Positions 1 through 18,976 of a DNA stretch of 36,013 nt are shown in pieces. This DNA is from a virus. Numbering within the stretch: the first letter of the stretch is position 1; every line of letters begins with the position of its first letter. The notes under the pieces were generated by a model that made no database searches, was not told where the DNA came from, and saw only the letters and a program-made list of their open reading frames with translations. The stretch covers positions 1-36,013 of the IMG/VR virus record IMGVR_UViG_3300040801_003188, one strand, 5' to 3'. The position numbers and the translations under genes are program-made.

Positions 1-117
1 ATAGTCCCAGGCACAACAGACGCCCACAGCTTTTATTCACATTTCGCGTTCTCGCCGAACCGCACGGCAGCGAATCCAATCGGCCCGCCTCCGGGCTTTG
101 TAACGGGGTAAGAATAT
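1..117. repeat. Terminal direct repeat, copy 1 (identical to 35897-36013). Wrap-around overlap of a circular or terminally redundant genome.
   Basis: Read by eye: bases 1-117 (atagtcccaggcacaacag...gggtaagaatat) recur exactly at 35897-36013. The repeat lies inside coding sequence: the 3' end of the 33356..36007 gene plus the ATG of the next gene. Confidence 0.95.
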
Positions 118-1312
118 GGCTAGAACAGGAAGCGGGGTCTACTGTCGCGGCGGCGTAACCGGCGCGCATGTGCAGACTGGCATCGACATCGACGCACTAG
201 GCGGAACGCCTGATGTGTTGGTTGTCATGCTCGGCTATTACGACGACGCGTCAGATGGCAGCGAGATCACTGCCGTCGAGTACGGTGACGGAACCAACTG
301 GCAGACCCTAACCTTGATTGGCACGGGGCACGAGGGCGGATTCGGCACCGACCAGCAGGCGCGAGCCTACGCGGTCCTGAATCCTAACGTGAGCTATGAC
401 CGCATCCGCATCACGGCTTCCGAGGCGCTGACAGAGGGCGGAATTGTCGGATGGCACGCAGAGTCGAACGCGACCACGACCGGTATTCAGTCGCAGGCGG
501 CTTTCTCTGGCGGTCCTGGCGAGACATCGAGCGACACCTTTACCGGCGGAGCGACGGGAGACCGGATTGTCGCCCTGACCAATGGCGCCACCACCTGGGG
601 CGAGGGACTGGTAGAGCGGGCATCGTCAGCGGTTGCGTGTAATTCGTGGGGCGGTGGGTACCTCGCCGACAAGGCTTGGGAAGACGGCACCACGGCGGGC
701 GCTTGGTCGGCGCAGGGTGATTTCCTGCAAGTCTTGGCCGTGCATATTCCGGCCAGCGCTAGTGGTGTTGTGTTGCCATCATTTGATGGTCCAAATATAG
801 GCAACCAATCCGATGTAGAAAATCAGGCAATCGCCCCGTTGGACGTATCCGGTTTGTTTACCGCAGGAACCGGCACTAGCCCAACTTACAGTGCTTCCGG
901 ATTGCCTGTCGGGCTATCTATTGACCCGGCCACTGGTATTATATCAGGCACCCCAACAACAGTTGGTACAAATGCTAGTTGTCAGGTAACTTTGACTACA
1001 AGCGAAGGTTCTGCTAATTCAAATTTGTTTAGTTGGGAAATAACCACTGCCATAACTGTTCAAGTTTTAGATATAGGTGCTACAAAACCATCAGGATCGT
1101 TTTCTGTAACGGACGGATCGCAGGCTACCATAGGTAATCAGGTAGAGGTACCATTGTCTACTGATCAAGGTGACGCCATAACTTGGTATGGCCCCCCATA
1201 CGATGGCACCTTTGTTATTGATAATTCTACCGGGCAAAAAACTTTTCAAGCTCGTAGTCGTGAAGACTCTGGTAGCCCGTGGACTCCGTATGCTACGTTT
1301 ACCATAAATTAA
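116..1312 (+). CDS. Fibre/decoration-like protein with a putative Ig (He_PIG/cadherin-like) domain. The N-terminal half is GC-rich and the C-terminal half AT-rich.
   Basis: 398-aa ORF. ATG 116 lies 4 nt after the TAA of the upstream gene. SGLPVGLSIDPATGIISGTPTT is the classic 'putative Ig' signature. Composition switches at about nt 770. Confidence 0.7.
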   Translation: MARTGSGVYCRGGVTGAHVQTGIDIDALGGTPDVLVVMLGYYDDASDGSEITAVEYGDGTNWQTLTLIGTGHEGGFGTDQQARAYAVLNPNVSYDRIRITASEALTEGGIVGWHAESNATTTGIQSQAAFSGGPGETSSDTFTGGATGDRIVALTNGATTWGEGLVERASSAVACNSWGGGYLADKAWEDGTTAGAWSAQGDFLQVLAVHIPASASGVVLPSFDGPNIGNQSDVENQAIAPLDVSGLFTAGTGTSPTYSASGLPVGLSIDPATGIISGTPTTVGTNASCQVTLTTSEGSANSNLFSWEITTAITVQVLDIGATKPSGSFSVTDGSQATIGNQVEVPLSTDQGDAITWYGPPYDGTFVIDNSTGQKTFQARSREDSGSPWTPYATFTIN

Positions 1313-1320
1313 TGAGGCAC

Positions 1321-1548
1321 ATGGCAATGAATTTGTCACAAGCAAATAAAATTGAAAAGATGCTTTTGCAAGGACTAAGCATGTCTGAAATTGCAGATAA
1401 CATGAGTCAATACATTCCAAGTTCTGATGTGTTTGCGTATATCAGGTCCGTATCAGAAACAAATAGCAAAAGTCCGATATACAAATCAAAGCGCGATGTC
1501 ATAAAAGCTGCAACAACTGCTATGGATGGCAGCAAAATTACCGAGTAG
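1321..1548 (+). CDS. Small protein with a possible LuxR/sigma-70 region-4-like helix-turn-helix
   Basis: In-frame ATGs at 1321 and 1327 follow TAA 1310-1312, with GAGG at 1314-1317. The track start at 1279 would overlap the upstream gene. LLQGLSMSEIADNM resembles a GerE/LuxR HTH. Confidence 0.5.
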   Translation: MAMNLSQANKIEKMLLQGLSMSEIADNMSQYIPSSDVFAYIRSVSETNSKSPIYKSKRDVIKAATTAMDGSKITE

Positions 1549-1557
1549 GACCAAAAA

Positions 1558-2142
1558 ATGACCCCTACTGAAATTTGGAATGCTGCTGTTGTCCGTTGTA
1601 GTGGAACTCCTATAACTACAACGGGCGGCGATGAAACCGTAGAAGAAGAATTGTTCGGGTATATGTACCCAATGGAACGTGATGCTGTTTTGTCTGCCAG
1701 GGACTGGAGTTTTAACCGCAAAATAGTTTCTTTGTCCCCGCTAGTTGAGTTGGATGGAATCAGGAATGCCCCGGTGTTTGGCATTCCTAGTGACACGCTT
1801 AGAGTATGGCGGGTTGATGTTGATCCTTATTTTAAGTCAGTAGATCTAGAGTGGGAGATATATAACAATAGGATAGTAGTGCCGGGGGCCGGGGATCAGT
1901 TATATGTTTATTATGGTTACTCAGAATTGGATTCTACCCGCTATACCCCAGATTTTGTTAAAGCGTTAGTTATAAAGTGCGCTACCGCTTTGGCGCTTCC
2001 CCTTAAACAGAGCGTAAGCTTGAGGGAAAGTTTGTTAAAAGAGTATGATAGTGTGTTAACAGAAGCAGCAGCATTGGACGGGATGAGTGGGTCAAAAGTT
2101 AATTACAAGCCCGGCAAATTAAGAAGGGCTCGCAATGCCTAG
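1558..2142 (+). CDS. Tail tubular protein A (T7 gp11-like)
   Basis: 194 aa, sited directly upstream of a 761-aa ORF with an 8-nt overlap. Size and order match T7 gp11/gp12. The N-terminal pattern (...ARDWSFN...) resembles gp11-type proteins. Confidence 0.65.
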   Translation: MTPTEIWNAAVVRCSGTPITTTGGDETVEEELFGYMYPMERDAVLSARDWSFNRKIVSLSPLVELDGIRNAPVFGIPSDTLRVWRVDVDPYFKSVDLEWEIYNNRIVVPGAGDQLYVYYGYSELDSTRYTPDFVKALVIKCATALALPLKQSVSLRESLLKEYDSVLTEAAALDGMSGSKVNYKPGKLRRARNA

Positions 2143-4420
2143 TCGTAAAATACGACCAATAGTGGAGTCTTTCGCCGCTGGCAGAATAGACAGCGATTTG
2201 CGTGGTCGTGTTAGCGCTCCCATATACCAAGAATCTGTTTTTGATTCATTAAACATGGTATCCCGTTTGCGCGGACCAATCAAAACGCGTGGCGGGTTTG
2301 AACACGTTGCAGTCATAAATGAAACTACGGACCGGTTTCGTAAACTTCCATTTTATTATTCGTCCGGCAAAAGTTATTTTGTTGGAATAGGCAACGACAA
2401 CATATATGTATTGGACGAAAACGGCATAGTGACGGGGGGCATTGGAGGCCAGCCCGGTGGAGCGGGCAACCTGTTATTGAACGGCGATTTTGGGCTTGGA
2501 CTGAGCAATTGGATAAATCGTACGGCGTTTGCAGAAACTCCAATCCGCGTAACTTATGGTAACACGGACGCGGCGTCACTGACCTGGGATTCATCGAGGC
2601 CCTCAGCTAGGCTTAGATTAGACGGTACCGATAACACCGAAGCTATAGCTCGAAACATTGTAGCTACCGGTCAATTAATAACATTGGCTGCAGGTACCTA
2701 TGATTTAACCGGTAGCTACGAATTTGTCGATGCTTTTCCAAGTGACTACGCTGAATTAACAGTAACGGTGCCAACCGACCCGGATGATTTGTTCCCGATA
2801 CTATTTGTTATACCGGGCAACGAATTGATTAGGGAAAATTTGCCAAGCGGGTCTACGGAATTTTCTACCCAATTTACTCTGGCTCAGGAAAGCCAAGTAT
2901 ACATAGAAGTATCGGGCCATTGGGGGGAGTTTGGCCAGCCTATTACTGATAGGTCTATGTATTTAAAAGAAGTAAGCGTTATAGACCCGTCTGCCAATCA
3001 AGGAGGGGGTGGGACAGCTCAACCAATTATTTTTACCAACCCGTGGACAAATAATATAGACGATGTTGATTTTGCTGTTTCTCCTAATCAGAAATCAATG
3101 TTGTTGTTTCATAAGGATGTTGCCCCCAGAGCCATATCGTATGACGATGTAAACGATTCTTGGTCGTTTACACCCGTAACATTTATTGGTCAACCGCCAG
3201 AATGGGCTGCCAATAATTGGCCATCGAAATTAAGTTTCAACAATCGTAGATTGTTGGCAGCATCAACGCCAAGCAATCCTAACAGAGTGTGGGCCAGCGC
3301 ATCCGATAATTTTTTGGATTTTACGCAACAGGCATCGCCAACCGCTAATGATGCTTTTGCGTTTGACCTTATTGATAATAGTAAAGTTCAATTTATAGAT
3401 TCACTAGAAGAAATCATAATCGGGTCAGATACTAGGCCATGGGAATTAATTAGTTCAACGCCCGGGGTCGTGGCCCCAAATGATTATGTTGCTCGTCGTC
3501 AATCGTTACGGGGCGCATCTAGTGGTGATTTTTTAAACATAGATGCCGAGTTACTGTACCTAAGTGATAACAACAGGCGGGTACAGGCAATTACTAGAGA
3601 AGACCGTGGTAATAGATACGTAATAAAAGAAGTTTCATGGATGGCCAATGAACTGACTAAACATTCTGTTGGAGATATGGCATTAACCCAATACCCAGAC
3701 CAGATAGTTTGGTTTAGAAAAAATGGTTCTGTTGGCGATTTTGTGGCTTGTACTTACAACCCAGAGGAAAAAGATTTCCCTGGTTGGCATGCCCACCATA
3801 CGGACGGCGACATACTGTCATTTGCATCGACGTTTGTTAACGGTCAATATGAATTATTTGCTGTAATTAAACGACATAACGAATCCGGTTCTTATGTTAG
3901 TTATGAGCGGTACAGGCCGGACATACATTTGGATTCTTATTTGCGTCAATTTTATCCCACCCCCACAACCACATTGGTGGGGTTAGATAGGTTTAATGGT
4001 AAATCGGTGTATGTTTATGCCGATGGTGCTGGGTATGGGCCATATGAAGTTTTAAATGGGTCCATATCGCTACCTGAAACGGTACAGGAAGTGTATGTAG
4101 GGTTTGGTTTTTCGACATTGCTAGTTACTAGGGACTTAGAAGGCGGATTTCCGGCAGGCACTATGCAAGGTACACAGCAGTCTTGGAACAAAATATGGGT
4201 TAGAGGGAAGTTTACGGTGCCCCCAGTAATTAATGGTCGACGAGCACCGGAACGTTCAGTAAAAATTAATATGGATACAGCGGTCCCGTCAGACTATAGG
4301 GATGTTGAAATCACTAGCGATGGGATCAAATCTGATAACCGAATAACCATAACTGAGGGGTTACCTGTCCCCTTGGAGGTTATAGCGGTGTTCGGTGAAA
4401 TGGCAACGGGGTCAACATAA
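2135..4420 (+). CDS. Tail tubular protein B (T7 gp12-like)
   Basis: 761 aa. Positioned between the gp11-like ORF and three internal-virion-sized ORFs, matching T7-type order 11-12-13/14-15-16-17. Confidence 0.65.
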   Translation: MPSRKIRPIVESFAAGRIDSDLRGRVSAPIYQESVFDSLNMVSRLRGPIKTRGGFEHVAVINETTDRFRKLPFYYSSGKSYFVGIGNDNIYVLDENGIVTGGIGGQPGGAGNLLLNGDFGLGLSNWINRTAFAETPIRVTYGNTDAASLTWDSSRPSARLRLDGTDNTEAIARNIVATGQLITLAAGTYDLTGSYEFVDAFPSDYAELTVTVPTDPDDLFPILFVIPGNELIRENLPSGSTEFSTQFTLAQESQVYIEVSGHWGEFGQPITDRSMYLKEVSVIDPSANQGGGGTAQPIIFTNPWTNNIDDVDFAVSPNQKSMLLFHKDVAPRAISYDDVNDSWSFTPVTFIGQPPEWAANNWPSKLSFNNRRLLAASTPSNPNRVWASASDNFLDFTQQASPTANDAFAFDLIDNSKVQFIDSLEEIIIGSDTRPWELISSTPGVVAPNDYVARRQSLRGASSGDFLNIDAELLYLSDNNRRVQAITREDRGNRYVIKEVSWMANELTKHSVGDMALTQYPDQIVWFRKNGSVGDFVACTYNPEEKDFPGWHAHHTDGDILSFASTFVNGQYELFAVIKRHNESGSYVSYERYRPDIHLDSYLRQFYPTPTTTLVGLDRFNGKSVYVYADGAGYGPYEVLNGSISLPETVQEVYVGFGFSTLLVTRDLEGGFPAGTMQGTQQSWNKIWVRGKFTVPPVINGRRAPERSVKINMDTAVPSDYRDVEITSDGIKSDNRITITEGLPVPLEVIAVFGEMATGST

Positions 4421-4845
4421 TGTCGTCACTAAATGCTGCATTGACTGGTCTTTCAATTGGATTGGATGTTGCCTCTGGATTATCTGGCATGAATTCGGCA
4501 AAAAGAGCCGCTAAAGCTCAAGCCGAATTAGAAATGTTGACCGCAGCAGAGAATGTTAGGCGCGCTCGTCGACGTCAGAGGCAGGAATTGGGCCAGATGA
4601 AATTAGCGGCTGCTGCTTCTAATACCGGCAATGTTTCTGGTTACGGGTACAGCGGCGTTATCAAAGATGCTGAACAAGAATTCAAACGAGAGATAGATTG
4701 GATTAGAACTGCTGCCAGACTGCGTGCTAGAGGCGCACAAGAGGCAGGCGAAATGGCTGCCATTACCACTGGTCTTGGCACATTAAGCGGCCTTATTTCT
4801 GGTGTTTCTGGTCTAGGCAAAACCGAGGGCTGGTGGGGATCATGA
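4420..4845 (+). CDS. Internal virion protein (gp13/14-like)
   Basis: 141 aa with TAATG coupling to the upstream gene. Gly/Ala/Ser-rich hydrophobic ends flank a basic helical core (RRARRRQRQE). Confidence 0.5.
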   Translation: MSSLNAALTGLSIGLDVASGLSGMNSAKRAAKAQAELEMLTAAENVRRARRRQRQELGQMKLAAAASNTGNVSGYGYSGVIKDAEQEFKREIDWIRTAARLRARGAQEAGEMAAITTGLGTLSGLISGVSGLGKTEGWWGS

Positions 4846-6956
4846 AAATAAATTTTGTAAGTCTTGGTCCGGCGCAGCCTCTTACTAAAGGGGACCAGAT
4901 AGGTCGTGAATTGGCCAAAACTCAGGCCGTTCAGTCTACAATAAGAACGGTCACTGGTACCTTGCTTCAAATACAAGATGATATAAATAAACAGGATTAT
5001 GAAAATTCTGTTGTAGAATATGAAATAGCTATGCAGAGCGCTACTGCAAAGCGAATGCTTGAAAGGGAAATACAATTATCTGATGTACCTGATGGGTTTA
5101 AAATTACTGATGATATGCAACAAAACGGATCCATACAAGGGTCACGTTTTGCATTAGATTTGTTTAAAACAGAATCCGGCAACATACGTAATCGCATATC
5201 CCAGAAGGTTCCGAGAGCTTACGCCCAGCAATTTTCAAATTTCGCTGACAAAGTACAAGTTAATGCAGAATCAGAAGTAATGGCTCAGCAAATGGCCTGG
5301 GCCAGGGACGAAGCGTTGGCGGATTTTAATAATAATACAGAAAATTTGCTCAACGCTGGTATGTATTCTGAGGCAACAGCTTATGTTGAATCTAGCCCGT
5401 TATTGACAGATGTGCAAAAACAAGAGGCCATATCACGAATTGCAAAACAACGCGAATTAGACCCCATTTATGACTCAATTAATAATGGGGATACCCAAGA
5501 AATGCAAGTTATGTCGTCTTACCTAAAAGACAGCGATTATGATGGTTTTTTGTCGCCTGCCGAAAGGCGTAGTTTATATCAACAGTTGGAGGCCGAGATT
5601 GTTAGGTCAATGTCTGTGGCTGATGCGAAATTAGCTATGGAAATTGGCCGCAAGGCCGGTGACTTAGAAATTGGTGTAAGGTTTGGTAATGCTGATATTG
5701 TAGATATAGATAATGCCTATGACCGTGGCGTAATTTCAGCCGAAAAACGTACACAACTCATGACGCTTTATTATGGCAAAGTTGCGGAGGCGCAAAAACG
5801 AGCAGCTGATTTTGATTTTGTGTCTTATTCAATAGAATCAGGCATACCATTAGACCATAACCGTGCTGACCATCGCAATCAAGTGGACGAGTTTTTCCGC
5901 TATATGATCGGGGCGCAGGAAGGAGAGCCGATACCGCCTACACCAGAAAACATGGCCCGAGCTTTGCAAGTTGCTAAAACCGGGATTTTGCCAACTGAGG
6001 CAAAGTCTTGGATCGTCGGCATGAATCGGTCTCGTGACCCAAACAAAATTATACTCGCAGCACAGTTTTATGAACAGTTACAAAGACAATACCCCATGGT
6101 TTGGCGCGATAGTGAGGGCATAGATGATCGAGACCGCATGATTATGAACGGGGTACTAGCTTTAACCCGTTCTGGTTCAACTGCACAAGAAGCACTTACT
6201 ATCGCAATGGATTCAGCTAACCGTACCCCGGAAGAACGCCAATTGATAGACCATAAATACAGGTCTATACAAATGGGTAGCGGCAATCAGCAATCTCTTG
6301 AAAAATTTATCAGAAAAGACGATAGGTTTACTAGTTCAATACTAGGTGTGCCTGTCTCTGGTGGCCCGCCGCCCCCAACTATTCAAATGGTTGCAGAATA
6401 TGATTCCGCAGTACGTCATTATTATGGATATTTTGAAGACATAGAAATGGCTCGCCAAATGGCATATGATAGTTTGCGTAACATATGGTCTGCAACTCAG
6501 ATCAATGGCGATCGCCAAGTTATGAAGTACCCCCCAGAGGCCATGACTGGTATCGGCAACACCCAGGATTTGCGGGAATCTTTGGTAAAAGATGCTGAAT
6601 CTGCTGGGATCACAATAGATGATTCAATCCGTGTTGTTTCTACTGAAAACACAAGGGAAACCGGCGCATATCAACTGGTACGGTTGCGCCCTGACGGATT
6701 GCCAGAGGTGGTTACTGACTCCAATGGTGTTGCTTTGTCTTGGATTCCTGATGTCGAGTCTATAAGAGAACAGCAACGCGAAAGAGATCTGGCCGAAGCC
6801 AACGATAAACGTGCTAAAATTCGTAGGCTACAACAGGAGGTAAGGGAAGAAGGCGGATTGACCGGCAAGCACCCGGATGGGTTTATACATCTTGAATTTA
6901 CGTCTGAATTTCCGTGGATTGATGCGACCCATATACCAGCAGAGGGCCATGAATAA
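4842..6956 (+). CDS. Internal virion/core protein (gp15-like)
   Basis: 704 aa from ATG 4842, which overlaps the upstream stop as ATGA. The track start at 4833 is GTG. Helical and charged. Assigned by position in the module. Confidence 0.5.
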   Translation: MKINFVSLGPAQPLTKGDQIGRELAKTQAVQSTIRTVTGTLLQIQDDINKQDYENSVVEYEIAMQSATAKRMLEREIQLSDVPDGFKITDDMQQNGSIQGSRFALDLFKTESGNIRNRISQKVPRAYAQQFSNFADKVQVNAESEVMAQQMAWARDEALADFNNNTENLLNAGMYSEATAYVESSPLLTDVQKQEAISRIAKQRELDPIYDSINNGDTQEMQVMSSYLKDSDYDGFLSPAERRSLYQQLEAEIVRSMSVADAKLAMEIGRKAGDLEIGVRFGNADIVDIDNAYDRGVISAEKRTQLMTLYYGKVAEAQKRAADFDFVSYSIESGIPLDHNRADHRNQVDEFFRYMIGAQEGEPIPPTPENMARALQVAKTGILPTEAKSWIVGMNRSRDPNKIILAAQFYEQLQRQYPMVWRDSEGIDDRDRMIMNGVLALTRSGSTAQEALTIAMDSANRTPEERQLIDHKYRSIQMGSGNQQSLEKFIRKDDRFTSSILGVPVSGGPPPPTIQMVAEYDSAVRHYYGYFEDIEMARQMAYDSLRNIWSATQINGDRQVMKYPPEAMTGIGNTQDLRESLVKDAESAGITIDDSIRVVSTENTRETGAYQLVRLRPDGLPEVVTDSNGVALSWIPDVESIREQQRERDLAEANDKRAKIRRLQQEVREEGGLTGKHPDGFIHLEFTSEFPWIDATHIPAEGHE

Positions 6957-9949
6957 TGCCACTAGTAAATGATTCAAGGCCAGCGATACATCCGGGGTTG
7001 CGCGATCCTGATGAATCATTTGACCCGGACGCAATTAAACACGGTGCTCTGCAAATATTTACTTCCGGGTTTGAGGAGTATAACCCAATATCCGCTGCTG
7101 TAGCTAGGGGGGTAAAACCAAATTTTGTGCCGATAGATGGGTATGACCCATTGGGCGATGACAAGAACGACATAGAGGGCTATGAGCCATATGCTGAGTC
7201 TTTTATGTTTTCTGAATCCCCAGCCGAAACCCAATGGATAAAATCAACCATTGATCGTGAGGTAAGAAACCGCGACATACTTATGCAATCCGGGGTTACA
7301 GGAATAGTAGCCTCGGTAGCCGGTGGATTTACTAGTCCAGCTTTATTGGCCACTTTGCTTGTGCCCGGCGGCGGCCAAACAATAGCGGGAAGGGCATTAT
7401 TTGAGGGGTTTCTGGTAGGCTCTGGGGAACTTATGTCCGAAGCTGCCTTACAAGGGATACAAGAAACTAGAACATTGGAACAGAGTGCCATTAATGTAGT
7501 AGGTGGCGCATTGTTTGCTGGTGTGTTGGGCGGTGTTTCTTCTAGCCTTTCTAGAGCGGAACAGAAGCAAGTAAAAGATGTCATAGTCAGGGATTTACTG
7601 GATCAGGCGTCGGCACCAGATAAGTCTGCAATCAGCAGGCGTGCGTTGTCAGATACAACTGATCAAATTACAGCGCTGGATGTGCCTGACGCTGTGTCGG
7701 CTACCGTATCAGTGATGGATACTGGTGTACGTTTGATGCGTTCCCCCAACCCGGAAATTCGTAGAGCAACAGAAATGTTGGTTGAGACCCCGGCTAGGCT
7801 AACAAAAAATAGGGCTGGAGAACCCACATTTGTTGCTGCAGAAACTAGGATAAAACAAGCGTTTACCCCTGTATCTGAGTCAATTGATTTGATGCGTAAT
7901 TCTTATGCCCAAATGATGGGCGTAAAGGGGCCTGCATCGTTTTATAGGGCGTGGGTCAAGGGCCAACGGCCCGGGTCTATGTCATACCGTGAGTTCAGAA
8001 ATGAAGTTGGTAGGGCTATGAGGTATGGTGATACACACAGTAATCCATACATACAAGCAGCCGCAAGATCATTTCGTGCTAATGTATTTGACCCTCTAAA
8101 AACCCGTGCACAAAAAGCCAACCTACTCGGGGAGGACATAGATCTCCTTGGTGCTGATTCTTATCTTACACGCATGTATGATTTTCATAAGATCAAACAA
8201 AATCCACAAGAATTTACAAATGCGATAGCACAGTATCTACAAAGGGATCAAGGGTATAAACACGAAGTTGCTCAAGAAGCAGCCGATATTGTATATCGTT
8301 CTTTGTTAGATGTAGATAATGTATTTGGTATACCAAAGAAAATAGTGCCAAAAGCCGGTATGCTTAAGGACCGCGAAATTGATATACCAGATAGGGTTCT
8401 TGAGCCATGGCTGGAATCTGATATTGAGGTTATAAGTCGTGTATACACCAGACGTATGGCTACCGAGGTCGAATTAGCCGAAACTTTTGGTGATCGCGAA
8501 ATGCGCGAAGCATTTGCCAGAATAGAAAGACAACACCGCAAGTCAGTGGATGAAGCTATTTCTGCAGGCAACACTAAATTGGCTGCTAGGCTTGAAGAAC
8601 AGCATCAAAAAGACCGCAAGGCGTTGGTCGCTATTAGGGACATGTTTATAGGCACCTATGGTATGCCAAGAGACCCTATGTCGGGGTTGGTTCGCGGCGC
8701 CAGATTTCTTCGTGCGTATAACTATATGCTAATGTTGGGTGGTCAGGTAATATCATCGTTCCCCGATATGGCCAGACCAATAGTAACCAACGGACTACGT
8801 GGTTATCTTAAAGCAATGGCACCAATGATGACCGATGCTATTGTTGGCACAGGAACATTGGGGTCTAAAAGGATAGCACCTAAAGCTCTTCGCGACGTTA
8901 AACGAATGGGTGTAGGGCTTGATATGACCCTACATACAAGAATGCGTGCATTTGCTGATTTAAGTGAAATCCCAACTACAATGGGACGGCTCGAAGTTTT
9001 GGGCGAAGCCGGAACATCGGTATTTTCAAAAGTATCGCTAATGGATCCGTGGAATTCATTTTTTAAACAATGGTCCGGTACCATGGCGTCTGATCGCCTT
9101 ATTGCTATGGCCCTTAAAGAGAAACGCACTAAAGCTGAATTGGCACAAGCAGCATGGCTTGGGCTGAGCGAAAAGGACCTAATCACCATAGGTAAAATGT
9201 GGACACGGTTTGGTGAAAAAGAATCTGGGTTCCATGTTGCTAATATTGCGTCTTGGCCAAGTTCTATAAGAGACAAATTTTCTGCGGCTGTGTTGAAAGA
9301 AGCCGATTTTATTATAATTACCCCGGGCAAAGCAGAACGCCCGTTGTGGGCAGGAACTGAGTGGGGCAAGACCATAATGCAATTCAAATCATTTGCCATG
9401 GCCGCTACTAACAGAATGGCCATGTCTGGGCTATCACAGCGCGATTTAAATGTCATAAATTCTTTGTTATTTACCGTATTCCTTGGCTCTGTAGTTACAT
9501 ATATAAAGCGCACTCAATCTGGGCGGGATACAGATGACATAGATAATTTTGATTCGTCTTTTTGGATAGAATCTATAGACAGAGGCGGTGCATTGGGCAT
9601 CATGATGGAGCCTGTAAACATAGTTCGTCACATTGGCGGTTATGGCCCATATGGAGGAAGTCCACGTGAAATGGCCGGTGAAGTTTTTGGCCCAAGCATA
9701 GGAACCATGGAATCGGCTGGCTCTGCTGTTCAGGGAGCGCTTCGTGGCATGATTCCAGGCGAAGAACCAAGAGCCACAAATGTTCATGCAGTTAGAAAGC
9801 TAATTCCGTATCAGAATTTGTTTTATACAAGACATGTGTTGGACAGGGCAGAACATGAAGTTATAAAGGCATTGGGGCTGGAGGGGGAAACTGTTTATGA
9901 ACGTAAACAGGCTCAAAATCAGAATATGGACAACGGCCCGAGGTTCTAA
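6956..9949 (+). CDS. Large internal virion/ejection protein (gp16-like) with hydrophobic segments
   Basis: 997 aa with TAATG coupling. Gly/Ala-rich membrane-like segments (GVTGIVASVAGGFTSPALLATLLVPGG; VVGGALFAGVLGGVSS). Assigned by position. Confidence 0.5.
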   Translation: MPLVNDSRPAIHPGLRDPDESFDPDAIKHGALQIFTSGFEEYNPISAAVARGVKPNFVPIDGYDPLGDDKNDIEGYEPYAESFMFSESPAETQWIKSTIDREVRNRDILMQSGVTGIVASVAGGFTSPALLATLLVPGGGQTIAGRALFEGFLVGSGELMSEAALQGIQETRTLEQSAINVVGGALFAGVLGGVSSSLSRAEQKQVKDVIVRDLLDQASAPDKSAISRRALSDTTDQITALDVPDAVSATVSVMDTGVRLMRSPNPEIRRATEMLVETPARLTKNRAGEPTFVAAETRIKQAFTPVSESIDLMRNSYAQMMGVKGPASFYRAWVKGQRPGSMSYREFRNEVGRAMRYGDTHSNPYIQAAARSFRANVFDPLKTRAQKANLLGEDIDLLGADSYLTRMYDFHKIKQNPQEFTNAIAQYLQRDQGYKHEVAQEAADIVYRSLLDVDNVFGIPKKIVPKAGMLKDREIDIPDRVLEPWLESDIEVISRVYTRRMATEVELAETFGDREMREAFARIERQHRKSVDEAISAGNTKLAARLEEQHQKDRKALVAIRDMFIGTYGMPRDPMSGLVRGARFLRAYNYMLMLGGQVISSFPDMARPIVTNGLRGYLKAMAPMMTDAIVGTGTLGSKRIAPKALRDVKRMGVGLDMTLHTRMRAFADLSEIPTTMGRLEVLGEAGTSVFSKVSLMDPWNSFFKQWSGTMASDRLIAMALKEKRTKAELAQAAWLGLSEKDLITIGKMWTRFGEKESGFHVANIASWPSSIRDKFSAAVLKEADFIIITPGKAERPLWAGTEWGKTIMQFKSFAMAATNRMAMSGLSQRDLNVINSLLFTVFLGSVVTYIKRTQSGRDTDDIDNFDSSFWIESIDRGGALGIMMEPVNIVRHIGGYGPYGGSPREMAGEVFGPSIGTMESAGSAVQGALRGMIPGEEPRATNVHAVRKLIPYQNLFYTRHVLDRAEHEVIKALGLEGETVYERKQAQNQNMDNGPRF

Positions 9950-9951
9950 TA

Positions 9952-11550
9952 ATGACTATATCAACCCAAAACATTTCCGTTGAATATACGGCCAATGGGA
10001 CAGATACCCAATGGTCGTTTGATTTTGTTTGTTATGATGAAGAGGCTTTGATAGTTGAATTCAATGGTGTTCCCCAAACATTAATCAGAAAGGTAATAAA
10101 CGACGAACAGCAATCCAGCCCGGGCGGACTGGTTTCCGTATTGGATGAGCTTGGGGCAGAACTGCAGCCTGTACCTGTAGCAGGTACAGTAATAAGAATC
10201 GAACGCGAGCAACCGTATACCCAAACTACTTCATTCCCTACTTCTGGAAAATTTCCAGCAAAAGCAACTGAATATACGTTTGATCGCATAGTAATGATGA
10301 TCCAGCAACTGTACCAATACGTGGTTTCTGTTGTCATTGGATCTGGGTTTTTGCAATCGGATGACGATGCGTCCATATCTGGGCAATGGACGTTTTTACA
10401 ACCAATTACTGGCAGCGTAACTGGCAGCGCGGCCAGTGCAGCCACGGCCAGTTTAGCTGGCGATTCTGGCCTTTTGCAAGGTCAGAACGGGGCGTTTTAT
10501 AGGAACGCTGGCAATTTAAACGCTGGTCTTGTGCCCGATGCCAGGGTCCCCGCTTCATCTGTAGTCCAGCATCAGGGGTCATTGTCGATAGCTTGGACTC
10601 AATTGACAGGAACAAAAAACGCTGACCTTTTGCAGGGTCAGAACGGGGCGTTTTACAGGAACGCTGGCAATTTGAATGCTGGTCTTATACCTGATGCCAG
10701 GGTTCCTTCCTCCGCTGTATCTCAGCATCAGGGGTTATTGTCGATAGATTGGACTCAATTGACAGGAACAAAGAATGCTGATCTTTTGCAAGGCCAGAAC
10801 GAGGCGTTTTATAGGAACGCCAGTAATTTGAATGTTGGTACCTTGCCAGGGCAGAGATTTGATGACACATCGCACGGCACCAGAAGCGGCGGTAGTTTGC
10901 ACGCCTTGGCTAATACGTCGTCTCCAGGGTTTATGTCTAGTGCTGATAAACAAAAGCTGGATGCATTAGAACTAAGTGCTATCGAGCCAGAATGGGGGGT
11001 AGCCGGGTTCATAAGTGTTACATCGCCTACTTCATATGTCAGTGTTGATTTGTCCTCCTACTTGACCCCGAACGCCGGGGATAGTCAAGAATTTAAAATT
11101 TGCATAGTGGCCGCACGAGCTAATGATTTTGGTAGACGATTTTTAACTATGCAGTTTGGTATAGGAAATGTGTGGCGGCAAGATGCAATATATCGTATAA
11201 ACAATGGTACGGGCAATGTAGCCGGTCTCCATGTCGGGTACATAAACCCATCCGCCGGGGATGTTAGCCCACCGTTTGGGGTAGATTTATATGGCAGGTA
11301 TTACGAGGGCATATCCGGTGCATCCGAAGTTTCTAGACGCCCGGCTGTATTTTCTACTAAAGCGTGGGGGTATGGTGACCAGACTACAGATTCGTGGCAA
11401 ATAGGTAACAGGGCATACTTTGCTAATGTTACAGGGTGCATAACCGACATAAGATTTTATTCATCTATGTTGGTCAATAGCTCACAAGTACAAACCGATG
11501 GCATTGCTAGTATGAAAATAATTGTGTACGAACGACGTATCCAACCATAG
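9952..11550 (+). CDS. Tail fibre with an N-terminal adaptor-type domain and internal tandem repeats
   Basis: 532 aa. The N-terminus (YTANGTDTQWSFDF...GTVIRIER) is typical of podovirus fibres. It has a 52-aa tandem repeat and an ...HALANTSSPGFMSSADKQKLD motif common in phage fibres. Confidence 0.75.
   Translation: MTISTQNISVEYTANGTDTQWSFDFVCYDEEALIVEFNGVPQTLIRKVINDEQQSSPGGLVSVLDELGAELQPVPVAGTVIRIEREQPYTQTTSFPTSGKFPAKATEYTFDRIVMMIQQLYQYVVSVVIGSGFLQSDDDASISGQWTFLQPITGSVTGSAASAATASLAGDSGLLQGQNGAFYRNAGNLNAGLVPDARVPASSVVQHQGSLSIAWTQLTGTKNADLLQGQNGAFYRNAGNLNAGLIPDARVPSSAVSQHQGLLSIDWTQLTGTKNADLLQGQNEAFYRNASNLNVGTLPGQRFDDTSHGTRSGGSLHALANTSSPGFMSSADKQKLDALELSAIEPEWGVAGFISVTSPTSYVSVDLSSYLTPNAGDSQEFKICIVAARANDFGRRFLTMQFGIGNVWRQDAIYRINNGTGNVAGLHVGYINPSAGDVSPPFGVDLYGRYYEGISGASEVSRRPAVFSTKAWGYGDQTTDSWQIGNRAYFANVTGCITDIRFYSSMLVNSSQVQTDGIASMKIIVYERRIQP
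10471..10845 (+). repeat. 156-nt (52-aa) tandem repeat, about 2.4 copies, inside the tail fibre gene
   Basis: Units start at 10471, 10627 and 10783 (cttttgca[ag]gg[tc]cagaac...). They encode LLQGQNGAFYRNAGNLNAGL[VI]PDARVP...WTQLTGTKNAD. Confidence 0.9.
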
Positions 11551-11573
11551 TGACTCATTAGGAGGAAACCAAT

Positions 11574-11741
11574 ATGGCTAAGGACAAGAAAGAAGAGGAT
11601 TCATTGCTCCGCTGGCTGGGCACGGGAGCAGCATACGAGGCCGGTACTAAATTGACACCCAGTGCAGTAAAAAAACGGGAATGCGCTGCCATGGGGCTAG
11701 AGTACGACTCAAAAACACAGACATGTAAGCCTAAAAAATAA
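11574..11741 (+). CDS. Small basic protein (55 aa), absent from the ORF track
   Basis: ATG 11574 lies 7 nt after GGAGGA (11561-11566). Translation: MAKDKKEEDSLLRWLGTGAAYEAGTKLTPSAVKKRECAAMGLEYDSKTQTCKPKK, with TAA at 11739-11741. It is the last gene of the + arm. Confidence 0.55.
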   Translation: MAKDKKEEDSLLRWLGTGAAYEAGTKLTPSAVKKRECAAMGLEYDSKTQTCKPKK

Positions 11742-11750
11742 TACCAAAAC

Positions 11751-11778
11751 CCCTCCCACGCCCCGGGGCGTGGGAGGG
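11751..11778 (-). terminator. Intrinsic terminator at the convergence point of the two arms (palindrome family copy 1)
   Basis: 28-nt perfect palindrome ccctcccacgccccggggcgtgggaggg. On the - strand it is followed by gttttggtattatttttt. It lies 9 nt after the stop of the last - strand gene. Confidence 0.75.
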
Positions 11779-11786
11779 TGACCTAC

Positions 11787-12173
11787 TCAATAGGTTGACA
11801 TTTCAGTTCTTGGGGCAAAACGCGGTATTGCACTTTGCCCAACAGTTACCAAATGTGACAGCATCATTGCCCTACACAAAATGTGGTGTGCGTGATTCAT
11901 CTGGGTGTCAGAATCCACGCTGCCGGGGTCATTTTGAAATTCATTTATGTGCCGCAACAAAGACTGCATAACCATTGGAACCGTATAATACTTTGTCCAA
12001 TCCTGGCCCGGGTGTAATTCCTCCCCCATAGTCATTATTTTGGCCATATTTCTAGTGGCAACAGGACTTATCAAATCAAATCTGAGTTTATTAGTGTCCC
12101 CAGATTTTGGCCCCGACTCGGTGTTGCTAACAACGCTATCGTTTGGTTGCAAATCGACTTTGATATCAGACAT
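11787..12173 (-). CDS. mazZ: MazZ/DUF550-type dNTP pyrophosphohydrolase-like protein
   Basis: 128 aa. KLRFDLISPVATRNMAKIMTMGEE...DWTKY...SLLRHINEF...HAHHILCRAMMLSHL matches my recollection of the dATP/dGTP diphosphohydrolase N-terminal family (K.R.DLip.eal..la.vlt.G..KY...NW...RH...HLaHa.cn). It sits in a cluster with the purZ and HD genes. Confidence 0.5.
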   Translation of the reverse strand: MSDIKVDLQPNDSVVSNTESGPKSGDTNKLRFDLISPVATRNMAKIMTMGEELHPGQDWTKYYTVPMVMQSLLRHINEFQNDPGSVDSDTQMNHAHHILCRAMMLSHLVTVGQSAIPRFAPRTEMSTY

Positions 12174-12544
12174 GCATTACTCTCCCATGTTGATATAGTT
12201 GGTTTCTGGCTTTTGCTGAATCTATCGTACCGCGTTCCCATGACCCACACCCAATGACTTTCTGTGCCATCATAGCATAGCAGTAGCGGCATACCGCCGA
12301 CTTTTGTGCGTTTCCTGTACCATCTGACTTGGGTATCCCTTAAATAAATGTACCCCTTGGACCATTGGTGCACAAATTTTATTTCGATTTGATTAGACGC
12401 CCCGTTCAAAAAATAATCTACATCTGGGAATCCGGGGCTGCTGTCAGCGCATTCTATGTTGTTGGCATGCCCCCCGTTCTTTTCTATTTGTTTAATCAAA
12501 TAGTTTTGGACATCGCGTTCAGATCTTAATTGGTCCTGTCTCAT
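12071..12544 (-). CDS. PD-(D/E)XK nuclease, VRR-NUC-like
   Basis: 157 aa. SERDVQNYLIKQIEKNGG...GFPDVDYF...NQIEIKF gives a D...E-x-K catalytic signature with the VRR-NUC-type N-terminal helix. The 3' 103 nt overlap the mazZ-like gene in another frame. Confidence 0.55.
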   Translation of the reverse strand: MRQDQLRSERDVQNYLIKQIEKNGGHANNIECADSSPGFPDVDYFLNGASNQIEIKFVHQWSKGYIYLRDTQVRWYRKRTKVGGMPLLLCYDGTESHWVWVMGTRYDRFSKSQKPTISTWESNACLISKSICNQTIALLATPSRGQNLGTLINSDLI

Positions 12545-13016
12545 ACTCTTTAACCACCTTTTCTATGCTCGAAAACAAAGCCGGATACGTGTTACGAATT
12601 TTTGCTGTAAAATCGCCCCATTTGTTTAAAAGATAATCCGTAACGTTAGCAGAATGCCTACCAACCCCGTAGTCGGACAAGAACCATATAGCATCCAACA
12701 TATCGGCAGCTTTTATTATAATATATTCAGGCTCCGACAGATCCCTATTGTGACCGGAAGAGTACAGCTGTTTAGTTGAATTAAATAGTCTTTCTTTTGT
12801 TGGGGTAGGTATATCGCCATTTATTATTTCATCTAAATCATGTTCTAGCGCCGCTTTTATTATGTTATCGTCATCGATACCGTATTTTTTTGCAATGGCC
12901 CTGGCTATCATCACCACGTTAAAAGTGTGCTCCGCTAACGACTGGTCCCTGGTAGTAGATACGATTACCCATCTTTTAACGGAATGTGCCCTAAGTATGT
13001 CTTGTATATCAAGCAT
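12519..13016 (-). CDS. datZ: HD-domain phosphohydrolase, DatZ-like (dATP triphosphohydrolase candidate)
   Basis: HD motif residues: LAEHTFNV...ALEHDLDEIINGDIP. The likely start is ATG 13016 (MLDIQDIL...), 4 nt after the purZ stop, with AGGA upstream. The track start at 13154 would overlap purZ by 146 nt. About 165 aa. Confidence 0.6.
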   Translation of the reverse strand: MLDIQDILRAHSVKRWVIVSTTRDQSLAEHTFNVVMIARAIAKKYGIDDDNIIKAALEHDLDEIINGDIPTPTKERLFNSTKQLYSSGHNRDLSEPEYIIIKAADMLDAIWFLSDYGVGRHSANVTDYLLNKWGDFTAKIRNTYPALFSSIEKVVKEYETGPIKI

Positions 13017-14046
13017 TTTTTGTATCCTGGTACTCTTTAATGTCCTCATATTTTGGCCCCCATCCGGTGTAAGACACCCCAACGGATCGGTCAACATGGG
13101 CACCACACATGTTATTGATTTCTTTAATAACATGCTCTGTTGATTCAGGCGCATAATTACAGAAATTCAAAAATATGTTTGTCGGTTGGCAAGCAATTAT
13201 AGCCTGCTTCATTTGAATCCTAGAGAACGAAAATACGCGCCTAACCCTGTTTGTTACCGTGGTCACTTCTGGTTCAACCCCGATGTCTGCCCATTCTATC
13301 TCTTCCTGATCCGGATAGCCGGGGCCGGAGAATCCGTTGGGGGTATTGCCGACCCTAATTGGGTGCAACCTAGCGGATCCAATAACTTTATTCAAATAAG
13401 CGTGCGGCACGCCGCAATCGGACAAAAATCTAGCTGGACCACAATCTCTACTGGTACAATATGGCCAGAACCCAGAGTTTATGCCCAAGGAGTAACCTTG
13501 AGCCCCCTCTATTAGAATGGACCTTGCTTTGTCCATTACGTCTAGCCATGTTGCATGACTTACAACGTTCCAGGAACTATCCAGAACATCGGTAGCCAAA
13601 CATAATTTGTCTTTACTTCTACTCATCTTGTCAACCATAGCAGCCATGGACCCCTGCATTGTACTGGCGATATGGTTTAACGAATTTTGCTCCTGTTCTT
13701 TGTGCCTTTCTTGCAGCACCGTGGCGGCCTCGTGTATCAATACTACGAATCTGAGACCTATGTCACGGCAATGTTGCAATTCGCTATACAGGCGTGCCGG
13801 GTCAAACACAGAACCGGGACCAATCATCACAAATTCAGTATTCTTGCCCATAACACCAGACGGCAGAACTTTATGTACCATCTTTATGTTGTCGCCCATC
13901 ATAAAAGTATGCCCAGCATTTGGCATGTTGGCATTGACTACAACTTCGTAATCTTTCTTAAGGGACAAATACCCTGCAATCAGCCCCTTACCTGTTGAGC
14001 CAAACTGCAGATCGACAATAATGTCCGCTTTTCTTCTGTTGTTCAT
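13009..14046 (-). CDS. purZ: PurZ-like N6-succino-2-amino-2'-deoxyadenylate synthase (short adenylosuccinate synthetase homologue)
   Basis: 345 aa versus about 430 for PurA. It aligns by eye to PurA motifs. [11 protein letters not shown] matches GTQWGDEGKGK, with Ser replacing the PurA Asp. NAGHT and LPSG are present. [23 protein letters not shown] matches [32 protein letters not shown] matches GATTGRRRR. Confidence 0.8.
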   Translation of the reverse strand: [345 protein letters not shown]

Positions 14047-14048
14047 TG

Positions 14049-16298
14049 CTATTTCTCCAAGTTGATACCTAAACGAGTTTTAACAACTGATTTCAATAGC
14101 CACAGTGGCGGCACTTCAAATAACCTTGGTCCACTTTTTACCCGTTTGTCTATAAACCCTAATTCACGCAATTTAGCATAAAATATCGTGCTACCTAATA
14201 CATGCCCTTTGACCCTCTCTCTTGACCAATTGGCAAATTCTTCATACAGCATTAATCTGTTAACCCTGCTTGGCCATTTACTATCTGGGTTATCCTCGTC
14301 CGGGGTTTCGAGTGATTCTTGCTCTATAATGCGAGATACCCAATGCACAAACGGCTCAGATAGGGCCAAGCGCTCCCGTTGGTGCTCCAATGCTTCTGTT
14401 TCTGGAGCACGCCTTAGATTGTGGGTTATTTTTCTATTTTGTAGATAATGCAACAAATGCGATAGCCCGGGGCCTTTCATCTGGTCGAAAAATTTATCAA
14501 AATACGCATGGTCATTGACTTTATTGTTGGCTACATCTAGCACAAACCATCTTCGCGACTGTGGGCCAGCCGGTATGAACCAATCCTCGTTGCTGGCCAC
14601 AACCAAATGTATCATATTGCGGTGTTTAGTTACATCTATCCCTTTACGTTCCAACATCAATTCACGTTCAGTAACCAGTCCCTTCAATTTACCGGCTGTT
14701 TTCTTATTGCCGCCCCACAGGATCTCGTCAGCAAACACCAGCAATGCGTCCTGCATGTGAGCATTAAATTTGCCTGTTAAATGCTCATCATCAGTAAGGT
14801 GGACATAATGCGTGCCCAATAATTTGCCTATGGTATTAAATACCATACCTTTTCCGGCACCTTCATCGCCGTGCAAAATGATAGACGCACCTTTTGGGTT
14901 TGCCGGGTCTTGTATTAGATCAGCAAACCAATCCATAACCCAATTATAATGATCTTCGTTCCCTTTACACAAAACATCCCTAACGTGCGACAAAAATACG
15001 CTACAATCCCCCGGGCGAGGCGAGGTTGTGAACCCCTCCCAAGTATTATAATATCCTGATGGAACTTTGCCGTCTGGAAACATGCCGAGGCCATTGTGAT
15101 ATGTTCGCCTAGCCGGGCTGGCTAACCAAATATCAGCAGCTGGCTTTAATACCGGCCCTTTACTGGTGTCGATAACTACCTTTCTAGGCTCCATCCACGT
15201 CCTAAATGAATCTCTATCCAACAATGAATAGCGCGGGTCATCCGATTTGCGGTCGCTGTTTTCAACCAATATCCTAATTTTATTGCCAACCAACACTACG
15301 GCAAATTCTTGATTAAGTTCTTCTACTAGTTCATCGAACGAATTATGATCTACGTCATCCGACCCAGCTGACCATCCCGCTTTTTTGGCGTAATAAACCA
15401 GTGACCCTATTCGCACGGGGCCATCAGATTTAAACCCATTCCACCTTATGTGGCATTCGTTCTTTTTGTACCTGCTGCCGTTTTTGCTCCAACTATCCCA
15501 AACTTCTAACCCATCATCATCAGGGTATTGTGAATGTATGGCTTGCCCTATTCTTAACCATTCGTCATATGTTACTTCATTTTGGTCAATGTAATCCAAC
15601 ATCCGCCTTATTTGGTCTAGCGGTATAGGGCGCTCCACGTCTTCATTGGTCATGCCCTCATTGCCACGGTTACTGTGGCTAGGCGGTTTCCACGGTACGC
15701 CCAATGAATTGTATACGAATGGCGGTATAGCTGTTATTTCGCCGCCCGATTCCCATTCATACCGCTTACCGTTTACTATGGACGGGAATGCTACTATGTG
15801 CGATTTACAGCTGTTACTATCCCCGCCTCTAGTATCCACACCTTTAGCTATTTTACTGGTTGAACTGGTAGCATTTTCTGCCCACAAGTACAAGTAATGC
15901 TTGCCGCCCCTTGGGGTTCGTTGAACCGGGCTATCCGGCAAATCGTTACTTTCATAATTACCTATGCCGTTGCAATCTGGGGTTACATCAGCATCTACAG
16001 CAAACACCCCGCCTTCACGGCCACACGCTATTCCTATGTTATAACCAACGTACCTGCCTGAATCAGGATGAAACCAATTATCTATGACTTTTGGATTTCT
16101 TGAGGCCGCCCCATAGTTTATGGCCTGTACTAATTTACCATTTATTTGCTCTTTCCTGGGCAATCCTTTGCCATTTGGTACTATTGGTAGTACGTATATC
16201 TTGTTTTCTATGTAGTGTTTTGCAGCTAGGTATACTTTCCATTCTTGGGTATAATCATCGGTGTTTATTTGGGCAAGATAATCAGCATCGATTCTCAT
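14049..16298 (-). CDS. Bifunctional primase-polymerase (AEP PrimPol, PriCT-2) fused to a D5/P4-type SF3 helicase
   Basis: The N-terminus (GIACGREGGVFAVDADV...PRGGKHYLYLW...GVDTRGG) has AEP motifs. YDEWLRIGQAIHSQY...WDSWS resembles PriCT-2. The Walker A motif is ILHGDEGAGKGM. ATG 16298 shares one base with the pol stop (TAATG). The track start at 16334 is TTG. Confidence 0.8.
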   Translation of the reverse strand: MRIDADYLAQINTDDYTQEWKVYLAAKHYIENKIYVLPIVPNGKGLPRKEQINGKLVQAINYGAASRNPKVIDNWFHPDSGRYVGYNIGIACGREGGVFAVDADVTPDCNGIGNYESNDLPDSPVQRTPRGGKHYLYLWAENATSSTSKIAKGVDTRGGDSNSCKSHIVAFPSIVNGKRYEWESGGEITAIPPFVYNSLGVPWKPPSHSNRGNEGMTNEDVERPIPLDQIRRMLDYIDQNEVTYDEWLRIGQAIHSQYPDDDGLEVWDSWSKNGSRYKKNECHIRWNGFKSDGPVRIGSLVYYAKKAGWSAGSDDVDHNSFDELVEELNQEFAVVLVGNKIRILVENSDRKSDDPRYSLLDRDSFRTWMEPRKVVIDTSKGPVLKPAADIWLASPARRTYHNGLGMFPDGKVPSGYYNTWEGFTTSPRPGDCSVFLSHVRDVLCKGNEDHYNWVMDWFADLIQDPANPKGASIILHGDEGAGKGMVFNTIGKLLGTHYVHLTDDEHLTGKFNAHMQDALLVFADEILWGGNKKTAGKLKGLVTERELMLERKGIDVTKHRNMIHLVVASNEDWFIPAGPQSRRWFVLDVANNKVNDHAYFDKFFDQMKGPGLSHLLHYLQNRKITHNLRRAPETEALEHQRERLALSEPFVHWVSRIIEQESLETPDEDNPDSKWPSRVNRLMLYEEFANWSRERVKGHVLGSTIFYAKLRELGFIDKRVKSGPRLFEVPPLWLLKSVVKTRLGINLEK

Positions 16299-18151: not shown

Positions 18152-18165
18152 AGTATTGCTCCGAT

Positions 18166-18191: not shown

Positions 18192-18202
18192 AATCTGGGC
18201 AA

Positions 18203-18937: not shown

Positions 18938-18976
18938 TTTATGTTCCTCTGTTCACTGTTCACTGTTAAACGTTCA

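Follow-up and report, generated by a model that had tools for sequence, protein, structure and literature searches.

A GC-rich segment across two adjacent putative fiber genes of a phiVC8/ZP6-type podophage may represent a sub-genic import

Introduction

Two adjacent genes of the virus in IMG/VR record IMGVR_UViG_3300040801_003188, here termed gene A and gene B, change sharply in base composition within their reading frames, the first from AT-rich to GC-rich and the second back again, which raises the question of how one GC-rich stretch came to lie across two genes while leaving both frames open. The window analyzed here is the whole of that record (36,013 nt), a circular assembly of 35,896 bp in which bases 1-117 are identical to bases 35897-36013; as this overlap is inside coding sequence, it is not a physical genome terminus. 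Genes A and B are flanked by the capsid gene (32405-33271) and by the adaptor and nozzle genes (1558-4420) and thus lie within the virion structural module. Judging by capsid similarity, which groups it with Alteromonas phage ZP6, the VP2/phiVC8 Vibrio phages, and the HTVC010P-type pelagiphages, the phage is a member of the phiVC8/ZP6/HTVC010P-type podophages. The explanation favored here, at a probability of about 60%, is that A and B form an accessory two-gene virion-fiber module with an imported central segment. This reading draws on sequence and on structural models, and the evidence for it is examined below alongside several alternative explanations. Coordinates of the features discussed are collected in Table 1.

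A Compositionally Foreign Block in Two Genes

The GC-rich block extends over ~2.33 kb, from ~34319/34334 to ~770 on the circular map, with a GC content of 0.61 as compared to 0.45 in its flanks. Two-changepoint maximum-likelihood segmentation placed it at 34276..760 (2380 nt; GC 0.608, with 0.476 to the left and 0.444 to the right), while the interval 34334..769 has a GC content of 0.607 (z = 12.8 versus the genome mean of 0.474). It is the most GC-rich 2.38-kb stretch of the genome, the runner-up elsewhere reaching 0.575 at ~24.5 kb. GC content at third codon positions (GC3) is 0.6-0.8 in the block, 0.3-0.45 in the flanks, and 0.37-0.48 in the backbone structural genes, and it steps from 0.32-0.45 to 0.72-0.83 around codons 320-335 of gene A and from 0.67-0.78 to 0.2-0.43 past approximately codon 220 of gene B. 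Since the shift is present at synonymous sites, it indicates a different nucleotide history and is not explained by amino acid composition. Gene A contributes its last 557 codons to the block and gene B its first ~218, with the 4-nt spacer in between, and both reading frames are open through both edges of the block.

A preliminary description of this DNA had proposed that a foreign GC-rich block runs across the contig junction and is fused in frame at both ends. The segmentation, the z value, and the 117-nt circular overlap all agree with the former proposal, and the open reading frames (ORFs) of 892 and 398 codons, which stay open throughout, agree with the latter. The extent that was given for the block also stands, except that its left edge is placed at 34319-34333 instead of exactly at 34320. 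When composition was compared with homology, as had been recommended, both edges coincided with module boundaries found independently in other phages. The exchanged part and the backbone are compositionally discordant, as in an exchanged receptor-binding protein (RBP) cassette.

The block itself is uneven. GC3 is ~0.77 in its first part (A_C1), ~0.61 in its second (A_C2), and ~0.72 in its third (B_N, or the BN domain), with all three well above backbone GC. The dinucleotide distance (delta*) between A_C1 and B_N is 39, and just 0.3% of backbone window pairs are equally close, while A_C2 is at a distance of 120-139 from both; these signatures were obtained from pieces of 650-900 nt and are noisy, since half-splits of the same pieces differ by 96-141. 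A second GC-rich set (23715-27002 and 27675-28100; GC 0.56-0.59, GC3 0.58-0.70) takes in small minus-strand ORFs of the early region along with an ORF of 110 aa that precedes the large terminase gene. A common source for the block and this early region (23.7-27 kb) was considered and dropped in view of dinucleotide distances of 121-154.

A Resident Proximal Part and a Distal Part With a Putative Start of Its Own in Gene A

The two sides of the left junction have different relatives. On the proximal side, the DMW repeat domain of A (aa15-103) is 34% identical to a stand-alone 106-aa ORF located 3' of the capsid gene in Vibrio phage K300, 53% identical to the N-terminus of protein P0047, and 36% identical to the C-terminus of protein P0048, and aa110-332 match the A-like protein of contig L005 at 36% identity (E 1e-30), a homology that ends at aa332. 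The distal side, aa336-892, matches P0001 alone, a 578-aa stand-alone metagenomic protein that is its sole detectable homolog. Met1 of P0001 aligns to Met336 of A, the C-termini of the two also align, and identity is 56% over 592 columns. Because the ATG at 34334 corresponds to the start of P0001 and has GGAG 6 nt upstream, the block looks like it begins with a formerly independent gene, whose translation would now continue in frame from the resident part that precedes it. A separate 557-aa product may be translated from this internal start alongside the 883- or 892-aa fusion. The TTG listed as the start of gene A (33329) is itself part of the run of Ts in the capsid terminator; the true start is probably the GTG at 33356, which has AAGAGG 9 nt upstream and would give the 883-aa product. 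The second copy of the 81-nt repeat that precedes the junction was considered as a donor-derived crossover scar and rejected, given that the copies have equal GC and that their differences divide into 6 AT-to-GC and 7 GC-to-AT changes.

Searches of larger collections with these sequences were negative. The block had no blastn match among GenBank phages; aa336-892 of A, gene B, and the adaptor had no matches in IMG/VR viral contigs; and a profile of the C-terminal part of A together with P0001 had none in JGI metagenome contigs or GTDB genomes.

A Recurrent Joint in Gene B

In gene B, the part that is retained across phages lies downstream of the junction. Proteins P0003 and P0009, encoded on contigs L003 and L005 by genes directly upstream of the adaptor gene, share only aa219-398 with B, at 55-61% identity and starting from PxFxGxNIxNQ, and their N-terminal parts are unrelated. 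Composition also breaks at this site. L003 is a mirror image of the window, with a GC content of 0.48 from the 3' end of the upstream gene through codon 309 of P0003 and of 0.57-0.62 from codon 310 onward; the break in L005 is weaker, with a GC3 of 0.47 in the N-terminal part of P0009 versus 0.58-0.62. Given that breaks in homology and in composition fall at the same site in L003 and L005, this position in the B family has served as a joint for recombination in two lineages at the least, and probably in three.

The Ig-like domain that had been proposed to lie beyond the composition break of gene B is a genuine He_PIG domain of backbone composition (47.5 bits versus the Pfam gathering cut-off of 24). 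The conserved C-terminal module of B had no matches in viral contigs, and tblastn of gene B against phages returned nothing. The P0009 gene (L005, 11000-11330) is frameshifted near its 3' end, and the conserved C-terminus (...DGTFVI...ARSR...WTP...) is recovered in the +2 frame. The A-like gene of L005 and the 141-aa ORF that follows may be split likewise, with sequencing errors as the probable cause.

A Variable Slot Between Capsid and Adaptor Genes

Among the relatives of this phage, the closest five in which the capsid-to-adaptor interval is on the fetched contig (ZP6, L007, L010, L011, and L018; capsid identity 45-61%) have a slot of 230-380 nt with one small ORF and lack the A/B module, and other relatives hold different genes in the slot. 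The location of A and B, which had been described as unusual, is therefore indeed variable in content. The ORF at 1321-1548 resembles the small ORF of these relatives by its location and length and by a weak pattern in its sequence, at 17-22% identity, and homology between them is not proven. Contigs L003 and L005 are ~80% identical at the DNA level through the tail genes and differ in the A/B region and in the middle of the adaptor. Their adaptor proteins (L003 2208-2858 and L005 11319-11969) have near-identical ends and an unrelated middle (~aa45-140), and this variable middle is encoded directly downstream of the variable A/B-like genes.

Population variants of the window were also sought. 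The exact adaptor protein is shared only by short, 100% identical fragments, namely L034 (window 1304-3069) and L035 (window 996-2419) from JGI samples 3300040776 and 3300040778, respectively, and no other record was found for the exact capsid protein. The complete identity of L034 and L035 indicates that the same phage genotype recurs across samples.

Domain Families and Their Gene Contexts

An exhaustive HMMER search recovered a small family of remote BN homologs with E values of 8e-13 to 1.7e-4; by phmmer, P0048, P0050, P0051, P0053, and P0054 matched at 8e-13 to 5e-6 and P0056 at 1.7e-4. In five full-length proteins the match begins at residues 3-19, while residue 4 of P0056 aligns to residue 39 of the BN query, the N-terminal stretch being absent. 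The family has no database name and consists of an alignable ~215-aa domain with the motifs VEWGNG, TGGAxGD, and KDW. An AlphaFold2 model built from 7 sequences is all-beta, with medium confidence (pLDDT 64, pTM 0.72). Comparison of the model against BFVD with Foldseek gave dozens of phage proteins at a probability of 1.0 and TM scores of 0.5-0.76, of which the named ones, bar one phosphodiesterase and one Ig-like entry, are all actinophage 'minor tail proteins'. Fold matches in the PDB had TM scores below 0.31, were insignificant, and were disregarded. A BN profile had no matches in viral contigs (first ordering), metagenome contigs, or GTDB genomes.

The genes that carry these domains have diverse neighbors. 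P0048 is a single 858-aa protein made up of BN, a LamG-like segment (recognized only by eye), and DMW, and it occupies the capsid-to-adaptor slot of a related 36%-GC phage with native composition. In L028 and L033, stand-alone BN genes immediately precede beta-helix-like fiber genes (816 and 916 aa) that are homologous to each other, and in L032, a phage-like contig of a Ketobacter metagenome-assembled genome, an Apiosidase-like gene is followed by a BN gene and then by a related 639-aa fiber gene. A conserved upstream partner of BN genes that resembles the C-terminal part of A was looked for and none was found. Outside gene A, DMW occurs as the stand-alone protein of K300, as part of p10 of phiVC8, at the N-terminus of P0047 and P0057, and at the C-terminus of P0048. 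P0047 and P0057 are encoded between the adaptor and nozzle genes, and their C-terminal part matches phrog_5939, 'tail protein', at E 1e-28.

Origin and Role of the Block

According to the import explanation favored here, the A/B module would have been built from mobile domains and would have been resident for so long that its outer parts came to share the composition of the backbone. These resident parts would be aa1-332 of A (DMW, two Ig-like repeats, and two short repeats) and aa219-398 of B (He_PIG and the C-terminal domain). The central segment would then have been imported by recombination from a GC-richer phage of similar kind, as an entire coding unit of the P0001 type, GGAG and ATG included, followed by the 4-nt spacer and a ~215-aa BN domain. 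The crossovers would be located in inter-domain linkers, that of A past the DSRNP repeat and that of B ahead of PSFDGPNIGNQ, and it is because they fell in such linkers that both genes would still be in frame. Gene A would thus have kept a proximal part that is conserved elsewhere (aa15-103 and aa110-332, as seen in K300, P0047, and L005) and acquired a distal part known from P0001. Gene neighborhoods and the fold match tip the balance slightly toward a position of A and B on the tail, as putative RBPs, in which case the import would be expected to alter virion binding or host range.

Several points weigh against this explanation. The presence of A and B in the virion and their binding of receptors are inferred. 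Neither aa336-892 of A nor the BN domain has a sequence or profile match in Pfam, PHROG, NCBIfam, or the PDB, and the AlphaFold2 model of aa336-892, an all-beta prediction built from a 2-sequence alignment, reached a pLDDT of only 31, which made it unusable for a fold search. All comparator phages are distant, with capsid identities of at most 61%, and cassette polymorphism among close relatives was for this reason not observed; L034 and L035, the only other contigs of this phage, are 100% identical to it and stop short of the junctions. A head fiber, too, could carry Ig-like domains and be encoded directly 3' of the capsid gene. Finally, the block is not homogeneous in its identity to P0001, in GC3, or in dinucleotide signature, and this internal heterogeneity means that a single transfer is not demonstrated. 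The single block replacement put forward in the preliminary description is thus upheld as regards a foreign block and not as regards one event. A nested mosaic produced by two or more exchanges, for example an older import of A_C1 through B_N in which A_C2 was later replaced, has a substantial chance of being correct, if one short of even. Such a history would account for an identity to P0001 of ~90% over aa336-596 that is much lower past aa596, for sub-block GC3 values that run 0.77, 0.61, and 0.72, and for the dinucleotide distance of 39 between A_C1 and B_N when A_C2 is 120-139 from both. The same pattern would result from a single transfer out of an already mosaic donor, however, and the import may have arrived as one piece in this manner; moreover, the short-piece signatures are noisy (half-splits of 96-141) and all three pieces are well above backbone GC.

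It had further been suggested that the two GC-rich halves physically interact, as a receptor-binding tip with an adhesin, cap, or chaperone domain, and are obligately exchanged together. The halves are adjacent, are separated by a 4-nt spacer of the coupling type, and share a foreign composition; the low-GC unit of L003 likewise runs from the end of the upstream gene into the 5' part of the B-like gene, and there is a precedent in fiber-plus-chaperone modules exchanged between distant phages (PMC10579305). Yet BN genes stand beside quite different partners, from the beta-helix-like genes downstream in L028 and L033 and the Apiosidase-like gene upstream in L032 to the fusion in P0048, with no conserved upstream partner, and a word-indexed search able to catch the downstream neighbor of P0001 found no BN homolog. 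Neither gene B nor its parts matched Tfa, gp38, Caudo_TAP, or intramolecular-chaperone-like families in Pfam, PHROGs, or NCBIfam. Crossovers in conserved flanks together with adjacency suffice to account for joint movement of the halves, and obligate pairing is considered unlikely. A related and improbable proposal is that A and B act as a new kind of two-component receptor-binding device, in which B would have inverted polarity, its conserved C-terminal Ig-like part being the anchor and its variable N-terminal beta-sandwich docking onto or capping the tip of fiber A. The traded unit would then be the sub-genic pair 'A tip plus B head', transferred in frame over two genes and across a gap of ~15 GC percentage points, in this case into a probable Z-base (PurZ) phage.

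A role as head fibers or capsid-decoration proteins, also raised earlier, has position in its favor, with gene A directly 3' of the capsid gene and its terminator and a stand-alone DMW protein 3' of the capsid gene in Vibrio phage K300. In addition, Ig-like domains are typical of decoration proteins, and gene 8.5 of phi29 follows the capsid gene. This role is nonetheless improbable, and less likely than one on the tail: the DMW protein P0057 is encoded between adaptor and nozzle genes and carries the 'tail protein' PHROG domain, the BN fold matches minor tail proteins, BN genes abut tail-fiber genes, and B-like genes are always directly upstream of the adaptor gene. No decoration-family match was obtained, and modules of this kind are encoded beside the adaptor or nozzle genes in L030, L029, L003, and L005 and are absent from the closest relatives. 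A further alternative, assembly of a chimera from contigs of an AT-rich and a GC-rich phage, is made conceivable by a circularization overlap that falls inside the block and by the short fragments, ending at 996 and 1304, that were all that two other samples gave. This is very improbable, as both junctions are in frame (892 and 398 codons) and fall exactly at domain boundaries known from independent phages, as a chimera would need long identical k-mers when relatives share only ~55-60% amino acid identity, and as L003 is an analogous natural mosaic.

Genome Layout and Other Features

The structural genes follow the order in Table 1 and continue 3' of the nozzle gene with three large genes placed where those for internal virion proteins would be expected, and then with a tail-fiber gene (9952-11550), which has three tandem 156-nt (52-aa) repeats (10463-10839) of 83-89% identity. 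The replication genes (11787-26168) are on the minus strand, opposite to the structural genes, and the largest minus-strand ORFs are those of a primase-polymerase, a family-A DNA polymerase, and a SNF2 helicase. No ORF of RNA polymerase size was found among the ORFs of the window. The T7-like (Autographiviridae) layout assumed at first is thus not that of this genome, in which the order of the structural genes alone is T7-like.

Table 1. Coordinates of genes, domains, and junctions in and around the capsid-to-adaptor slot (positions are those of the window)
Feature	Position	Strand	Remarks
Major capsid gene	32405..33271	+	PF19821 Phage_capsid_2, E 3.5e-50; phrog_3437; upstream edge of variable slot
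Intrinsic-terminator-like hairpin 3' of capsid gene	33303..33334	+	9 G-C pairs, then T-run
Gene A	33329..36007	+	892 codons as listed; stop 36005-36007, equal to 109-111 on circular map
DMW small repeat domain ('DMW..GYTGS..DM'), A aa15-103	33371..33637	+	Backbone-like composition; phrog_8869
Two Ig-like repeats, A aa110-276	33656..34156	+	Backbone composition; weak He_PIG match, E 0.16
Two tandem 81-nt (27-aa) repeats	34157..34318	+	Motif DSR(D/N)P at end, common to L005; last resident module
Left junction	34319..34333	+	Holds GGAG 6 nt upstream of in-frame ATG 34334
Block part 1 (A_C1), A aa336-596	34334..35116	+	GC3 ~0.77; predicted all-beta; ~90% amino acid identity to first half of P0001
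Block part 2 (A_C2), A aa597-892 and stop	35117..36007	+	GC3 ~0.61; far more diverged from second half of P0001
Assembly overlap, 117 nt	35897..36013		Identical to 1-117; within coding sequence
Gene B	116..1312	+	398 codons; ATG 4 nt (GAAT) past stop of gene A
Block part 3 (B_N, BN domain), B aa1-218	116..769	+	GC3 ~0.72; ~215-aa beta-sandwich domain, N-terminal in full-length remote homologs
Right junction	760..775	+	Directly before conserved motif PSFDGPNIGNQ
He_PIG Ig-like domain, B aa227-310	794..1045	+	PF05345, E 2.5e-12; PDB 4m03 Ig-like domain, E 2e-8
Conserved C-terminal ~87-aa domain of gene B	1049..1309	+	55% identity to C-terminus of P0003; also in L005, frameshift-corrected
Small 75-aa ORF 3' of gene B	1321..1548	+	Positional counterpart of relatives' capsid-adaptor small ORF
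Adaptor (tail tubular A-like) gene	1558..2142	+	phrog_394, E 1.8e-23; downstream edge of slot
Nozzle gene	2135-4420		phrog_376

Within the replication module, a 345-aa homolog of PurZ (succino-amino-deoxyadenylate synthase) is encoded at 13009-14046 on the minus strand, with 325 bits to NCBIfam NF038379 versus a cut-off of 300 and 48-51% identity to the homologs of Vibrio phage VP2, Vibrio phage 23E28.1, and Stenotrophomonas phage BUCT555. Its gene adjoins those of the Prim-Pol/DUF5906 primase (14049-16334) and the family-A DNA polymerase (16298-18202). PurZ serves as the marker enzyme for phages whose DNA carries 2-aminoadenine (the Z base), and because its homolog is encoded here, the genome probably contains 2-aminoadenine in place of adenine (a Z-genome). 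A GC-rich perfect palindrome, CCTCCCACGCCCCGGGGCGTGGGAGG, is present in five copies (11747-11777, 21548-21578, 23449-23479, 26732-26762, and 26916-26946), one between the convergent tail-fiber and replication modules and the rest in the early region; these are probably bidirectional terminators or regulatory hairpins. Two of them are adjoined by the copies of a 35-nt direct repeat (ATGCCACATATCTCCTGTCTATGTCT...; 21521-21555 and 23491-23525), which may act on the minus-strand genes as a promoter or regulatory element specific to the phage.

Comparison With Known Systems

Distal tail-fiber cassettes are known from P2 (H-G), Mu (S-U, the G segment), lambda (stf-tfa), and the T-even phages (gp37-gp38). 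As in these, the exchanged unit inferred here would consist of the 3' part of a fiber gene and the adjoining downstream gene, with breakpoints at conserved motifs or domain linkers and with the N-terminal anchor of the fiber resident. Unlike in these, gene B has no match to Tfa, gp38, or another chaperone family, only its N-terminal domain would be exchanged while its two C-terminal domains are conserved, and the module belongs to a podophage, in which it lies between capsid and adaptor genes instead of closing a tail operon as in a myovirus or siphovirus. The head fiber gp8.5 of phi29 and Hoc of T4 are Ig-like capsid decoration proteins. Gene A resembles them in its position directly 3' of the capsid gene and in its Ig-like domains, while no homology to them was detected and relatives encode such modules beside adaptor, nozzle, or fiber genes. 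By fold, the modeled BN domain (B aa1-223) would be closest to uncharacterized Caudovirales proteins, at TM scores of up to 0.74-0.76, and to the 'minor tail proteins' of Mycobacterium phages Shauna1, Tweety, and Gaia, at a Foldseek probability of 1.0 and TM scores of 0.5-0.66; sequence identity to the actinobacteriophage proteins is only 10-21% and the model has a pLDDT of 64.

Klebsiella podophages carry branched dual-RBP systems that combine an anchor RBP and a second RBP (PMC13579863). Like the putative RBP genes A and B, these are two consecutive modular genes with exchangeable specificity domains. The second RBP of such systems retains a conserved N-terminal docking peptide and varies C-terminally, which is the reverse of gene B. 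No T4gp10-like branching domain was detected in A or B. A host-recognition module of a tail fiber and its cognate chaperone is common to Alteromonas schitovirus A5, myovirus V22, and others (PMC10579305). In it, as proposed for A/B, neighboring fiber and partner genes pass horizontally between marine phages that are only distantly related. The two systems have no sequence similarity, and the former involves whole genes and a tested chaperone, in contrast to sub-genic pieces recognized from sequence in the present case.

Implications

Mosaic receptor-binding cassettes are already well known; what is new is the present case, its unnamed domain families, and a second gene that is variable at its N-terminus. 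If the import explanation is true, the locus would be an unusually clean natural case of sub-genic, in-frame exchange over two adjacent virion genes, with breakpoints mapped to within ~15 nt, one of which, that of gene B, recurs in unrelated podophages. The two linkers are accordingly potential natural splice points for the engineering of chimeric fibers. DMW, BN, and the P0001-like double beta domain are uncharacterized mobile families that probably serve as building blocks of host recognition in the little-studied podophages of the phiVC8/ZP6/HTVC010P type.

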